A stretch of 64,000 nucleotides of DNA from positions 1 through 64,000 of the forward strand of contig CAZXGF010000005.1 of NCBI GenBank assembly GCA_964640185.1. Direction: 5' to 3'. The translations under genes and the position numbers were made by a program. Positions 25,976 through 34,521 of this stretch are shown here, piece by piece (within the stretch, counting starts at the first letter, position 1; each line of letters starts with the position of its first letter). The stretch comes from an uncultured Verrucomicrobiota bacterium (GTDB lineage Bacteria; Auribacterota; JABMQX01). The notes under the pieces were generated by a model that worked only from the letters and a program-made list of their open reading frames with translations, did no database searches and had not been told where the DNA came from.

Positions 25976-26830
25976 TCAAGAGTGTTTCAACGCCTCCGCT
26001 CCGGAGACCACATCCAGCAGTTCCTCGGTGATGTCATTCTGGCGCTGGATGCGCGCCCGGAGCTGCAGATCCTTGAGGGTGTCGTCAATGTTGTTCTTGG
26101 CGGCCTCCATGGATTGAAGTCGCATGCCGTTCTCGCCGGCGAGGCTCTCAGTGAAGGCGCGGTAGAGCGAAATGAAGGTGTATTCGTGCACCAGCTCCCA
26201 CAGAAGCCGCACCCGCGACAGGGCGAGATGCGGCGGAGAAGTGCGCGCCTTTTCGGCCTCGCGCCATTGGGTGAGGTCCAGCGGAAGGACGCGTTCGAAC
26301 GCGGGCTTGATTCGCCCCGGCGAGAGGTAGCGCGCGTAAAGCAGGTACAACTGAGCGAACGCATTGCGTCCATGAAGCTCGAGGACGATTTTGGCAATCT
26401 CATGAATGACCGCATCAACGCCGTCCGGCGAGGTCGTGGAGGGCAGTTCGGCAAGAATCGCGAGTTTCTCCCTTCGTATCAGGCCCGGGCCGCGCTTGCC
26501 AACGACGATGAATTGGGGCCCACTCGCGGTTGCGGCGTGCTTCACTGCCGCCTCCGCCATAACCTCGTTGAAGCGCCCGCAGAGACCCTGCTCCGAGAAG
26601 AACGCCAGAATCGCCGTCCCCCGCCCTTCGCTTTCCGGAAGACGGATTTCTCGCCCGAACAGACAATCCTCTATTGCGTGGCCGACCGTGTCGGCGTAGG
26701 CGCGGACGCCGTCCAGACGCTCCTCGGCTCGGCTCAGGTATGTCGCCGCGAGGGAACGCATCGAGTGAATGATGTCGCGCAGCCCCTCAATCGTCTGAAT
26801 TTGTCTCTCGATCTGGCGTCGGTTCGGCAT
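25976..26830 (-). CDS. atpG: ATP synthase (N-type) gamma subunit
   Basis: MPNRRQIERQIQTIEGLRDI is the typical gamma N-terminus and there is a C-terminal helix. It is the last gene of the operon. Confidence 0.85.
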   Translation of the reverse strand: MPNRRQIERQIQTIEGLRDIIHSMRSLAATYLSRAEERLDGVRAYADTVGHAIEDCLFGREIRLPESEGRGTAILAFFSEQGLCGRFNEVMAEAAVKHAATASGPQFIVVGKRGPGLIRREKLAILAELPSTTSPDGVDAVIHEIAKIVLELHGRNAFAQLYLLYARYLSPGRIKPAFERVLPLDLTQWREAEKARTSPPHLALSRVRLLWELVHEYTFISLYRAFTESLAGENGMRLQSMEAAKNNIDDTLKDLQLRARIQRQNDITEELLDVVSGAEALKHS

Positions 26831-28583
26831 CGTTTACGTCGTCCACGTCATCCGGTGTGGCGGCCGCGGGCTGGACTTCCGCTTTCTCTTCGTGAGATGC
26901 TTCCGTCCGCTTTTCCCGCTTTTTCTCCACGGCTTCCGTTTTCGGCTCCTCCTTCTTCTCCGGCGAGGGTTCCCCTTTTTCAGGCGGAGGTTTCTCCTCT
27001 GAGAAATCTGCGGCGATGGCCTCGATGCTCTTCGCGAGGGCGTCCCACTCGGTATCCTGGAGCTCCTCTCCGCTCTCGATTTTCTTCAGAAGCTTGCCAT
27101 GCTTCGCCGGAATCATCTCCCGCAGAGTTTGTTGAAAGCGCGCCAGTTTTTCGAGGGGGATGTTGTCCACAATGCCACGGTCCACGGAGAGAAGGATGGC
27201 CACCTGCTCGCCCGCAGTCAGCGGGTCGAGCCGCTGCTGCTTCAGAATCTCGCGGATGCGGCGTCCGCGTTCGATCTTTTTCTGCGTCTCCTCCTCCACG
27301 GTGGCGCCGAAGCGGGTGAATATCTCCAGCTCTGCGAACTGGGCGTACTCGAGGCGCAGTTGCTTCACCACGGCGCGCATGGCGGGCAGTTGCGTCCTGC
27401 CTCCGACCCGCGATACCGATTTGCCGACGTGGATGGCGGGCTTCACGCCTTTGTAAAAGAGGTCCGGGTCCAGAAAGACCTGCCCGTCCGTGATGGAGAT
27501 GAGGTTGGTCGGAATGTACGCCGAGATGTTTTTCGCCTGCGTCTCCACAATCGGCAACGCGGTGAGGCTGCCGCCGCCCATCTCCTCCTTCAGTCTCGTC
27601 GCCCTTTCGAGAAGGCGGGAGTGAATGAAGAAGATGTCGCCGGGGTAAGCCTCGCGGCCCGGTGGGCGGCGCAACAGCAGCGAGATCTCCCGATAGGCGC
27701 GCGCGTGGCGGGTGAGATCGTCGTAGATGACGATAACGTCCCTGCCCTTCCGCATGAAGTACTCGCCCATCGTCGTGGCGGCGTACGGCACAATATATTG
27801 CAGACCGGGGGAGTCATCGGCGTCCGCGCACACCACGATGCTCTGGCGCATGACGCCGTGGCTCAACAGTGATTCCGTCACACGCTTCACCGACGAGACC
27901 TTCTGGCCAATCGCCACGTAGATGCAGATGACGTCACTCCCTCGCTGACTGAGAATGGTGTCCACGGCGAGCGCCGTTTTGCCGACCGCACGGTCGCCCA
28001 CGATAAGCTCACGCTGCCCTCGGCCTATGGGAATCAACGCGTCCACAGCTTTAACGCCGGTGACGAGCTGTTGGACCACCGGGAGGCGGTCGAGGATCGG
28101 CGGCGCCTCCGCCTCGATAGGGTCCCGGCGCTCATGCTCGATGAACCCCTCGCCGTCAAGCGGCCGGCCCAGGGCGTCCACCACGCGGCCGAGCAGCGCC
28201 TCCCCAACGGGCACGACCACCACCTCGCCGGTGAGCCTCACAGGGTCCCCCGCCGAGAGCTTCTTATCCTCGCCAAGCAGGATGCAGCCTATCTCTTCGG
28301 GGTCAAGGTTAAACACCAACCCGTAAACGTTCCCCGGGCATCGCAGCAGCTCATTGAAGCGCGCCTCAGGTAGCCCGCTGACCGTCGCCACCCCATCCGC
28401 GACGTGAATGATCCGGCCCACGTGTTCAACCCGGCCCGTGAGCTCGCGCTTGGTCACGGCCTTCCTCATTTCGCCGAGCCAGGAGGTTACGAACTCCGAC
28501 AGGTGAGGCTCAAACTCCAGCAGAGATTGCGCCTCTTCGGCGAGTTTATCAATCGGTTGGGAAATCGTGCTTTCGGCTGACAT
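26787..28583 (-). CDS. atpA: ATP synthase (N-type) alpha subunit, 598 aa, with an N-terminal extension of about 20 aa and a Lys/Glu/Pro-rich C-terminal tail of about 75 aa
   Basis: GDRAVGKT Walker A and the full alpha core, then EEKPPPEKGEPSPEKKEEPKTEAVEKKREKRTEA...DD beyond the normal C-terminus. Confidence 0.9.
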   Translation of the reverse strand: MSAESTISQPIDKLAEEAQSLLEFEPHLSEFVTSWLGEMRKAVTKRELTGRVEHVGRIIHVADGVATVSGLPEARFNELLRCPGNVYGLVFNLDPEEIGCILLGEDKKLSAGDPVRLTGEVVVVPVGEALLGRVVDALGRPLDGEGFIEHERRDPIEAEAPPILDRLPVVQQLVTGVKAVDALIPIGRGQRELIVGDRAVGKTALAVDTILSQRGSDVICIYVAIGQKVSSVKRVTESLLSHGVMRQSIVVCADADDSPGLQYIVPYAATTMGEYFMRKGRDVIVIYDDLTRHARAYREISLLLRRPPGREAYPGDIFFIHSRLLERATRLKEEMGGGSLTALPIVETQAKNISAYIPTNLISITDGQVFLDPDLFYKGVKPAIHVGKSVSRVGGRTQLPAMRAVVKQLRLEYAQFAELEIFTRFGATVEEETQKKIERGRRIREILKQQRLDPLTAGEQVAILLSVDRGIVDNIPLEKLARFQQTLREMIPAKHGKLLKKIESGEELQDTEWDALAKSIEAIAADFSEEKPPPEKGEPSPEKKEEPKTEAVEKKREKRTEASHEEKAEVQPAAATPDDVDDVNDAEPTPDRETNSDD

Positions 28584-28630
28584 GGTTTACCAATGCAACG
28601 CCCCACGAGACCAGTGGCGGCAACCCTCCA

Positions 28631-32724: not shown

Positions 32725-33112
32725 CTCACTCCATTTCGGGTTCCAGATTTCAGATTGCGGATTTCGTGCTTTCAGGTTTTACCCTCTCTGTTGCGACCGA
32801 TTTCGCATTGGGGATTTCGGATTTCGGATTTCACGCTTTCAGGCTTTACCTTCTCTGCGGCAGTCCATTTCGGATTCCAGATTGCGGGCTACCGACTTGG
32901 AAATCCGCATGCCCGATTTCGCATTGCGCCGTTCTGCTTTGTTCTCCTTCTCCTCGCGTTGCTTATAGACGCGATGGCAATTGCCAAAAGCCAGTAGATT
33001 CTTCCACCTCCGAATCGCGATTGTGAATTCTCGACCTCGACCACGCAATCTGCAATCTGCAATCCGCAGTCCGCAGTCCGCAATCTGCAATCTGCAATCC
33101 GCAATCCGCAAT
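32725..33112. repeat. Second copy of the heptad flank (32725-32920), then a 3' fragment of a second four-helix-bundle gene (about 32930-33010, ...KNLLAFGNCHRVYKQREEK), then a pure (GATTGCG)n array of about 10 units (33040-33110)
   Basis: Nucleotide and peptide similarity to the intact gene's 3' end. The array reads cgcaatctgcaatctgcaatccgcagtccgcagtccgcaatc... on the plus strand. Confidence 0.75.
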
Positions 33113-33114
33113 CA

Positions 33115-34521
33115 TCAATCCAACGCTCCTATCATATAGAATTGCGATTCGGGTTTATCGTCGTGTTTTCCTTCGAGAATCTCCTGGCAGCCCCGGAGGG
33201 TCTTCTCAAGCGGAACTGTGGCGCCCTTTCTGCCGGTGAAATGCTCCGTAGTGTGAAAGGGCTGGGTGAGAAAGCGAATGATTCGCCGCGCTCGCTCGAC
33301 AGTGCTGCGGTCCTCCTCGCTCAGCTCCTCGATGCCAAGCATCGAGATGATGTCCTTCAGGTCGCGGTACTGAGCGATTACCCGCCGAACCTCGTCCGCC
33401 AGCCGCACATGTTCCTCCCCCACGATGACCGGGTCGAGCAGCTTGGAGCTCGATTCGAGTGGGTCCACCGCAGGATAGAGCCCCTGCGCCGCCATGTCTC
33501 GCGAAAGGACGATGCTTGAGTCCAGATGCTGGAACACGTGCGCGACCGCGGGGTCGGTCAAATCATCCGCCGGCACGTACACCGCCTGCACCGAAGTGAT
33601 GGTGCCGTGGTCGGTGGAGCCTATCCGTTCCTCGAGGGTGCCGATGTCTGTCGCCAATGTCGGCTGGTAGCCCACCCTCGACGGCATACGCCCCAACAGC
33701 CCCGAAACTTCCATACCCGCCTGCACAAAACGATACACGTTATCCATAAATAGAAGCACGTCCCGCTGAAGCTCATCGCGGAAGTATTCGGCGATGGTCA
33801 GCGCAGTCTGCCCCACACGGAAGCGCGCCCCGGGAGGCTCATTCATCTGCCCGAACACAAGGACGGAGTTTTTCAGGACACCGCTTTCCTTCATCTCGGT
33901 CCACATGTCGAGCGCCTCTCGCGACCGTTCACCGATCCCCGCAAAGATGCTGACGCCCTGATGCTCAGTCAGCGTGTTGTGAATCAGCTCCTGAATAAGA
34001 ACCGTTTTGCCGACGCCTGCGCCCCCGAACATGCCAGCCTTTCCCCCCTCGCTAATGGGCGCAAGAAGGTCAATAATCTTGATGCCGGTCTCGAAGACCT
34101 TTTCCGAAGCCACCTGTGAGAGGAAAGAAGGTGAGGGGCGGTGAATCGGATTGCGCTGGATGTTTTCAGGGAGAGCGTCCACATCCAGCGGCTCACCGAG
34201 GACGTTCAGCATGTGCCCGAGGACTTTTTCGTCCACCGGGACCATGACCGGCGCCCCCGTGCGCCGCGCCCTCATGCCTCGCTGCATTCCAGCCGTGAAG
34301 GCCAGGGCGATGGTGCGCACGGTATTCTCATCCAGATGCTGCTGCACCTCGAGCACCACGTCCTTTTCTTTCGACACACGAACGCACAGCGCCTCGAGAA
34401 GCGAGGGCAAGCCAGTCTTGAACCGCACATCCACCACGGACCCCCGCACGCTGACAACCACACCTTCGCCGTGTTCGACATCCTCACGCACGGTTACGGC
34501 TGTGTTTTCCTTCAATACCAT
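33115..34521 (-). CDS. atpD: ATP synthase (N-type) beta subunit
   Basis: [15 protein letters not shown] Walker A and DELSEED-like region. RBS GGAGG. First gene of the operon. Confidence 0.95.

Follow-up and report, generated by a model that had tools for sequence, protein, structure and literature searches.

Which kind of rotary ATPase is encoded by a nine-gene operon of an uncultured bacterium, and which ion would it move? The operon lies on the minus strand of a 64,000-nucleotide stretch of contig CAZXGF010000005.1 (herein the window, meaning the whole stretch that was analyzed), where nine intact open reading frames (ORFs) at positions 25976-34521 follow one another in the order atpD-atpC-atpQ-atpR-atpB-atpE-atpF-atpA-atpG. 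The locus very probably represents a complete and apparently functional N-type rotary ATPase (N-ATPase) of an uncultured Planctomycetota bacterium. An original prediction, made before the present analysis, had named this arrangement as diagnostic of an N-type operon, and all nine genes are recovered in this order with NCBIfam and Pfam assignments, with two interruptions. Within its family, the locus is ordinary except that two subunits bear charged tails and that two insertions flanked by repeats interrupt the operon.

The family assignment is visible in every core subunit. The N-type ("alt_F1F0") NCBIfam models outscore the generic F-type models in seven of seven cases. For the β subunit, alt_F1F0_F1_bet reaches 667.6 bits against 660.3 bits for the generic atpD model; the corresponding values are 87.1 against 55.2 bits for ε (alt_F1F0_F1_eps), 206.9 against 112.2 bits for the a subunit (altF1_A), 104.1 against 56.0 bits for the c subunit (alt_F1F0_F0_C), 108.0 against 37.5 bits for the b subunit, 706.8 against 649.8 bits for α (alt_F1F0_F1_al), and 163.2 against 135.6 bits for γ (alt_F1F0_F1_gam, with an alignment that begins at residue 1). 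The Pfam families ATP-synt_ab, ATP-synt_DE_N, and ATP-synt_A are matched by the products of atpD, atpC, and atpB, respectively, and the a subunit retains the essential Arg173 (AVRLFGN).

The gene order and the phylogeny of the α subunit point in the same direction. Relatives were drawn from public genomes and metagenomes, and their loci carry labels such as L005 and L164. Clustering was examined for α only, in a midpoint-rooted neighbor-joining tree of 169 sequences, in which the homologues of at least about 63% identity (P0001-P0066) form a monophyletic clade. The tree falls into two groups. One comprises 89 sequences, including the window and all 73 loci with the β gene upstream (N-order), and no locus in F-order; the other comprises 80 sequences with all 58 F-order loci and no N-order locus. 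The nine-gene order recurs in nine loci of the clade that span the entire operon and in about 30 distant loci, and the closest named homologues carry the annotation "alternate F1F0 ATPase." The canonical F-type layout, with a separate δ gene between atpF and atpA and the β and ε genes last, is not found: atpF and atpA are 47 nt apart with no δ gene between them, and atpD and atpC lead the operon. As the prediction had stated, there is no separate δ gene (atpH), neither in the operon nor in the 64-kb window, which contains no other ATPase genes either. Gene order, the presence of AtpR, AtpQ instead of atpI, a long atpF without atpH, the c-subunit motif, and the clustering of α thus all follow the N-type pattern.

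The two additional small genes expected between atpC and atpB are both present. The product of atpQ matches TIGR02230 (ATPase_gene1) with 79.5 bits (cut-off 46.7) and PF09527 with E = 4e-19. AtpR is recognized by its position between atpQ and atpB and by its arginines. As a family, AtpR is defined as small and hydrophobic, with a conserved Arg in two of its three predicted membrane segments (PMC2881411); in the window, the membrane segments were judged by eye, without a predictor, and Arg66 (LLRVV) and Arg96 (VARTI) align with Arg in 11 of 11 loci of the clade and in distant N-ATPase loci. The atpR products of relatives match PF12966. The reading frame listed here begins with GTG, and public gene calls place the start at 31378, which results in 106 residues. 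In two deltaproteobacterial N-ATPase loci (L012:6237-7472 and L021:6600-7832), an ORF for a polytopic membrane protein of about 410 residues occupies the place between atpQ and atpB in which atpR is expected.

The b subunit combines two domains in one chain. Residues 7-135 match PF00430 (ATP-synt_B), and residues 171-248 match PF00213, the C-terminal part of OSCP/δ, with E = 5e-11 and 43.4 bits (cut-off 22.3). A profile built from 43 homologues matches solved b chains over positions 5-150 and solved δ chains over positions 113/136-241, with E values down to 2e-10. The AlphaFold2 (AF2) model, with a predicted local distance difference test (pLDDT) score of 88.9, shows a helix from residue 3 to 156, an α/β domain from 175 to 230, and a further helix leading into a low-confidence tail; from residue 270 onward, the pLDDT is about 48-57, and no secondary structure is formed. 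A Foldseek search with this model retrieved mycobacterial b-δ and V-ATPase subunit E. The proposed b-δ fusion is hence borne out by both the Pfam and the profile match. Nearly all b homologues found contain PF00430 together with PF00213, and both the partial fusion of b and δ and the absent δ gene are listed as traits of the N-ATPase family (PMC2881411; Koumandou and Kossida 2014, PMC4154653). The description of this subunit architecture as unusual is therefore not upheld. The predicted Lys-rich end of b is present as a tail of 62 residues, with 18 Lys and a net charge of +12. Only the window and its closest relative share it; in the other loci, the b tail measures 0-86 residues and is neutral or acidic.

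The c subunit was aligned to the Ilyobacter tartaricus ring (1yce), with a constant offset of +6. Herein E59, S60, T61, and Y64 correspond to E65, S66, T67, and Y70 of I. tartaricus, and Glu26 corresponds to the helix-1 ligand Q32. The ion site is consequently of the two-carboxylate E...ESTxxY type (E26; E59-S60-T61-x-x-Y64), which has been described for most N-ATPases (Dibrova et al., PMC2881411); the Na+-binding ring of Fusobacterium nucleatum shares this two-carboxylate ligand set, as cited in PMC5376962. The original prediction had assigned a full Na+ ligand set to this subunit, made up of the Gln of ARQP and E-S-T-x-x-Y. The E-S-T-x-x-Y part, with both S and T, stands, and the set is complete through E26; the Gln is not a ligand, because Q40 aligns with a conserved residue of the cytoplasmic loop (equivalent to I. 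tartaricus Q46) and Glu26 with the ligand Q32. Across the clade, the motif is invariant or conservatively altered (ETT). Compared with most relatives, the window's c subunit lacks 6-8 residues at its C terminus; the c subunits of L005 and L171 are likewise short.

The α subunit continues past its C-terminal domain for 76 residues (523-598), composed of 16 Glu, 10 Pro, 9 Ala, 9 Asp, and 9 Lys among others, with a net charge of -13. This matches the Lys/Glu/Pro-rich acidic tail of about 75 residues that had been predicted; no description of such a tail was found in the literature searched. Tail length within the clade varies between about 6 and 109 residues, with 26 or more in most cases, and nearly all tails are net acidic; those of more distant N-type α subunits have 3-35 residues, mostly fewer than 20. 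In 11 of 11 loci compared, the tail is net acidic (-4 to -28). The corresponding DNA contains no in-frame stop in 700 codons, compared with 12 and 14 stops in the other two frames and 16.3 predicted by shuffling; hence, the tail is maintained as coding sequence. Its amino acid sequence is not conserved among relatives, and two of these hold translated copies of the genome's heptamer repeat (described below) in their tails. No solved chain aligns past α residue 528, so that none covers the acidic tail proper. The AF2 model of α was computed from a shallow alignment and is poor (pLDDT 55.9), for which reason the low confidence of the tail is only weak evidence of disorder. In sum, the α tail is real and clade-wide, and there is no sign of a sequence-specific function. 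K/E/P/Q-rich low-complexity ends also occur on two unrelated ORFs of the window, the Band_7 protein at 23067-24599 (ending in SKKQQQPPSEQKAETKSKVKKAPPAE) and the ORF at 1512-2219 (ending in GKKKKKKKKPEAEEPPRPPAAQD). Tails of this kind may characterize this genome at large, not the ATPase in particular.

Many α tails end in (A/V)EPTxDRETDSDD. This stretch is the overlap of atpA with atpG read in another frame; the overlap, anticipated at about 44 nt, is exactly 44 nt long and recurs in 7 of 12 loci of the clade. The γ N terminus, MPNRRQIERQIQTIEGLRDI, is conserved also in relatives without the overlap (L005 and L169), and α subunits that end before atpG do not have the motif. It is therefore interpreted as a by-product of the overlap, and a role as a functional peptide was rejected, since the motif coincides exactly with the overlapping nucleotides. 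At another gene junction of the clade, the β subunit of L166 (3377-4888) has gained a C-terminal extension of about 40 residues that runs into atpC. At its opposite end, the α subunit of the window carries about 20 residues more than other N-type α subunits. This N-terminal extension (residues 1-34) is conserved in the clade, with L28 and W35 invariant, and is modeled as two helices with low confidence (pLDDT about 41-63). It may relate to the docking of a stalk that lacks the δ N-terminal domain.

The most unusual items of the locus are the repeat-flanked cassettes inside the operon. The one between atpD and atpC contains about 600 nt of heptamer repeats, arranged as inverted arrays on either side of an ORF: (GATTGCG)x11 at 33044-33121 is complementary to the repeat blocks at 32733-32881 and 32162-32362. 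In the minimum-energy RNA fold, the outer arms pair around the whole insert (z = -3.6). The enclosed ORF encodes a four-helix-bundle protein that matches TIGR02436 with 79.3 bits (cut-off 24) and PF05635 with E = 6e-15. L005, L165, and L167 have orthologous ORFs (69-73% identity) at this junction. In L164 (6803-6950) and L168 (6925-6990), the junction holds a compact hairpin only, made of the same arms (z = -4.0 and -4.8, respectively), and no remnant of the 23S_rRNA_IVP-family ORF was detected by tblastn in these two spacers. Other relatives show a 4-nt overlap of atpD and atpC, which looks ancestral. A further palindromic copy of the heptamer is located at 58181-58241 of the window. The insert may be a mobile stem-plus-ORF cassette that lives in mRNAs. 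By analogy with the intervening sequences (IVSs) of rRNA, it may be an rRNA-IVS-like cassette housed in an mRNA; a cut in the stem would then separate atpD from the other genes of the operon. An Rfam scan of 25000-35600 at E ≤ 1 gave no match.

The second insertion separates atpE from atpF, genes that are only 16-52 nt apart in relatives, and is absent from all of them. It is bounded by a 29-nt inverted repeat (29640-29668 and 30016-30044), folds with z = -4.0, and looks like a miniature inverted-repeat transposable element. At 29908, it contains the dispersed palindromic repeat ATGGGCARGATGCCCATGCCACG, which has three further copies in the window at 8736, 25573, and 47851 (four in total). The insertion has replaced the last 6-8 codons of atpE, with both membrane helices left intact. 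Both insertions are thus repeat-flanked, hairpin-forming elements in intergenic spacers, and coding sequence is intact except for these last atpE codons.

Several points weigh against reading the locus as a working, Na+-coupled N-ATPase. All "alt_F1F0" scores stay below the strict "exception" cut-offs of NCBI, hence the operon is placed on a divergent branch; the match of the window's AtpR to the Pfam AtpR family is sub-threshold (E = 0.0018, 19.1 bits, cut-off 26); the ion specificity and the direction of pumping are predicted from sequence; the sole biochemically tested N-type c-ring, that of Burkholderia pseudomallei, is H+-specific despite a Na+ prediction (PMC5376962); and the structured inserts of 964 and 552 nt could disturb co-transcription. 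Scores short of the "exception" cut-offs, together with a β subunit nearly tied on the generic atpD model (660 versus 668 bits), would also suit an ordinary F-type ATP synthase with a shuffled gene order and a separate atpH elsewhere. Such an enzyme is hardly credible, given AtpR and AtpQ between atpC and atpB, the δ C-terminal domain joined to b, the two Glu in the c subunit, and an α subunit that clusters with the 73 N-order loci to the exclusion of all 58 F-order loci, sharing 50% identity with the best F-order α versus 55-57% with distant N-order ones. A closer contender accepts the N-type assignment and couples the enzyme to protons, as in B. pseudomallei, whose c17 ring proved H+-selective; the second Glu (E26) may retain its proton and do no more than donate a hydrogen bond. 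Proton coupling is nonetheless unlikely here: the B. pseudomallei site, E30/E61-T62-M63/Y66 (PMC5376962), is without the Ser-Thr pair, whereas E59-S60-T61/Y64 of the window matches the Na+ rings of I. tartaricus and F. nucleatum, and the motif varies at most conservatively within the clade. Because the window keeps the Ser-Thr pair, Na+ coupling is probably the better prediction.

Two further alternatives concern the peculiarities of the locus rather than its family. The acidic α tail might be a functional regulatory element that serves for autoinhibition or docking, or that pairs with the basic tail of b. An acidic open-frame tail is kept across a monophyletic clade, the mycobacterial α C-terminal extension that contacts γ offers a precedent (PMC8698299), and in the window a charge of -13 on α faces +12 on b. 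This interpretation is doubtful, since the tail varies so widely in length and possesses no conserved motif of its own, the sole conserved stretch being the out-of-frame start of atpG, which is missing where the genes do not overlap. Similar K/E/P-rich tails sit on unrelated neighboring proteins, and no solved chain can be aligned past α residue 528. Outside the two closest relatives, the b tail is not basic but acidic or absent, so that the two charges do not covary; complementarity or coevolution of the tails was rejected, the b tails being neutral or acidic in most relatives with long acidic α tails. A more far-reaching version, in which the α tail (three copies per enzyme) and the conserved N-terminal helices form a tethered arm that, by autoinhibition or by buffering of cations, gates the pumping of Na+ driven by ATP, is quite improbable; if true, the α tail would be a new solution analogous to the mycobacterial α C-terminal hook. 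The most economical reading is that of a tolerated, fast-evolving, disordered extension grown at the atpA-atpG junction, and most probably neither the α nor the b tail has a sequence-specific role. The other alternative is that the operon is decaying, split by insertions and not expressed as a working enzyme. The two large structured inserts suggest this, one of them occurring in no relative and having cost the c subunit 6-8 C-terminal residues. Decay is very unlikely, however, as each of the nine ORFs has its full length and retains its key residues, the c subunits of L005 and L171 are short too, and contigs of several samples encode these protein sequences again; the identical α protein is found on 14 contigs, and the three occurrences retrieved come from three different samples. 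Moreover, the atpD-atpC insert is common to relatives that are only 74-80% identical in α and has therefore long coexisted with intact genes. The preferred reading remains an intact N-type operon with a probable preference for Na+.

By the family literature, the α3β3 head of such an enzyme would hydrolyze ATP and turn γ-ε and the c-ring. Na+ bound between neighboring c subunits would pass Arg173 of subunit a and be released outside, and with release to that side the enzyme would act as an ATP-driven Na+ exporter, the most likely function that can be predicted for it. According to Dibrova et al. 2010 (PMC2881411), an N-ATPase is always a second copy that accompanies a typical ATP synthase of the F- or A-type; by analogy, the exporter would work beside a separate primary ATP synthase. 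The b-δ(C-terminal domain) chain would form a peripheral stalk resembling that built with V-type subunit E, and AtpQ and AtpR would take part in assembly or regulation. The acidic α and Lys-rich b tails, both modeled with low confidence, are translated low-complexity extensions that have grown at gene junctions in this lineage.

Coordinates of the N-ATPase operon, its insertions, and its flanking elements in the window (nt, nucleotides; aa, residues)
Feature	Positions	Strand	Basis or remark
Sigma-70-like promoter match 5' of atpD	34610-34638	minus	weak, consensus match only
atpD, β subunit, 468 aa	33115-34521	minus	NCBIfam and Pfam
atpD-atpC insertion, 964 nt, heptamer-repeat arms around four-helix-bundle gene	32151-33114	minus	
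Four-helix-bundle gene, 23S_rRNA_IVP family, 118 aa	32366-32722	minus	co-oriented with operon
atpC, ε subunit, 135 aa	31743-32150	minus	NCBIfam and Pfam
atpQ, 99 aa	31460-31759	minus	TIGR02230 and PF09527
atpR, 121 aa from GTG	31058-31423	minus	position between atpQ and atpB, conserved Arg
atpB, a subunit, 240 aa	30343-31065	minus	NCBIfam and Pfam
atpE, c subunit, 81 aa	30101-30346	minus	NCBIfam and alignment to 1yce
atpE-atpF insertion, 552 nt, non-coding	29549-30100	minus	
atpF, b subunit with δ C-terminal domain, 305 aa	28631-29548	minus	Pfam, profile, AF2
atpF, δ-like part	28805-29038	minus	
atpF, Lys-rich tail	28631-28819	minus	
atpA, α subunit, 598 aa	26787-28583	minus	NCBIfam
atpA, clade-specific N-terminal extension	28482-28583	minus	
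atpA, acidic tail	26787-27017	minus	
atpG, γ subunit, 284 aa	25976-26830	minus	NCBIfam
atpA/atpG overlap, 44 nt	26787-26830	minus	
REP-like dispersed repeat upstream of atpD	34969-35097		
REP-like dispersed repeat downstream of atpG	25815-25942		

The promoter candidate reads TTGATA-17-CATAAT and agrees with the consensus in 10 of 12 positions. The repetitive extragenic palindromic (REP)-like element comprises two short palindromes, CCACCGGCTTCAGCCGGTGG and AGCCGGCTTYAGCCGGGCT, and has four copies in the window. Two of them flank the operon as direct repeats 9155 nt apart; their interpretation as the boundaries of a mobile operon cassette is not supported, as this short dispersed element is also present at 255-279 and 58470-58494. 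Downstream of atpG and on the operon strand, a Band_7/NfeD-like gene pair is located at 23067-25238. In the relative L164, such a pair lies upstream of atpD on the opposite strand (2887-5049). This difference in placement means that close relatives are separated by a rearrangement of the operon or of its flank.

N-ATPases remain poorly characterized, and sequence searches of a library of solved structures with α, b, and c returned only F- and V-type chains, none of them labeled N-type. This planctomycete clade, clearly delimited and with a Na+ motif of the textbook kind, would be a sensible choice for deciding between Na+ and H+. In addition, the locus illustrates how an operon of essential appearance can accumulate low-complexity tails and hairpin-flanked cassettes at its gene junctions and still stay unbroken. 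Otherwise, it adds one further member to a family described in 2010.

Compared with known systems, the operon most closely resembles the N-ATPase (atpDCQRBEFAG; PMC2881411), which has been reported in Methanosarcina, marine cyanobacteria, Chlorobi, Proteobacteria, and Planctomycetes. Shared features are the gene order, AtpQ, an AtpR with two Arg, the lack of a δ gene, the δ-like end of b, and a helix-1 Glu combined with ESTxxY. Unlike other N-ATPases, the window represents a divergent Planctomycetota branch (55-57% identity in α), its α subunit is lengthened by about 20 conserved residues at the N terminus and by a disordered acidic tail, its b subunit has a Lys-rich tail, and its operon is interrupted by two insertions. 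With the B. pseudomallei enzyme, it has the family, the operon type, and a two-carboxylate c subunit in common; the difference lies in E-S-T-x-x-Y, whereas the H+-selective ring of B. pseudomallei is devoid of the Ser-Thr pair. The Na+ F-type c-rings of I. tartaricus (1yce) and F. nucleatum (3zk1) contain the same ESTxxY in helix 2, and the F. nucleatum ring additionally has a Glu at the helix-1 ligand position. Both rings, however, are parts of F-type enzymes that serve as primary ATP synthases, have a separate δ subunit, and lack AtpR.

Two systems resemble single subunits. In the mycobacterial F-ATP synthase, which provided the best Foldseek matches, b is likewise joined to δ-like sequence; its fusion chain d holds the whole of δ and is accompanied by a second, free b, whereas the chain in the window includes only the δ C-terminal domain. 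The mycobacterial α subunit is also extended past its C-terminal domain (PMC8698299), but this extension is short, conserved, and binds γ, in contrast to the long, acidic, and unconserved tail described herein. Subunit E of V/A-type ATPases shares with b a long N-terminal helix followed by a small C-terminal α/β domain (Foldseek TM-score, normalized to the target, up to 0.50; profile matches to 4dt0 and 2dm9), a parallel drawn earlier by Pallen 2006, as cited in PMC2881411. Unlike subunit E, the N-ATPase b subunit possesses an N-terminal membrane helix, and its sequence is nearest to F-type b and δ.

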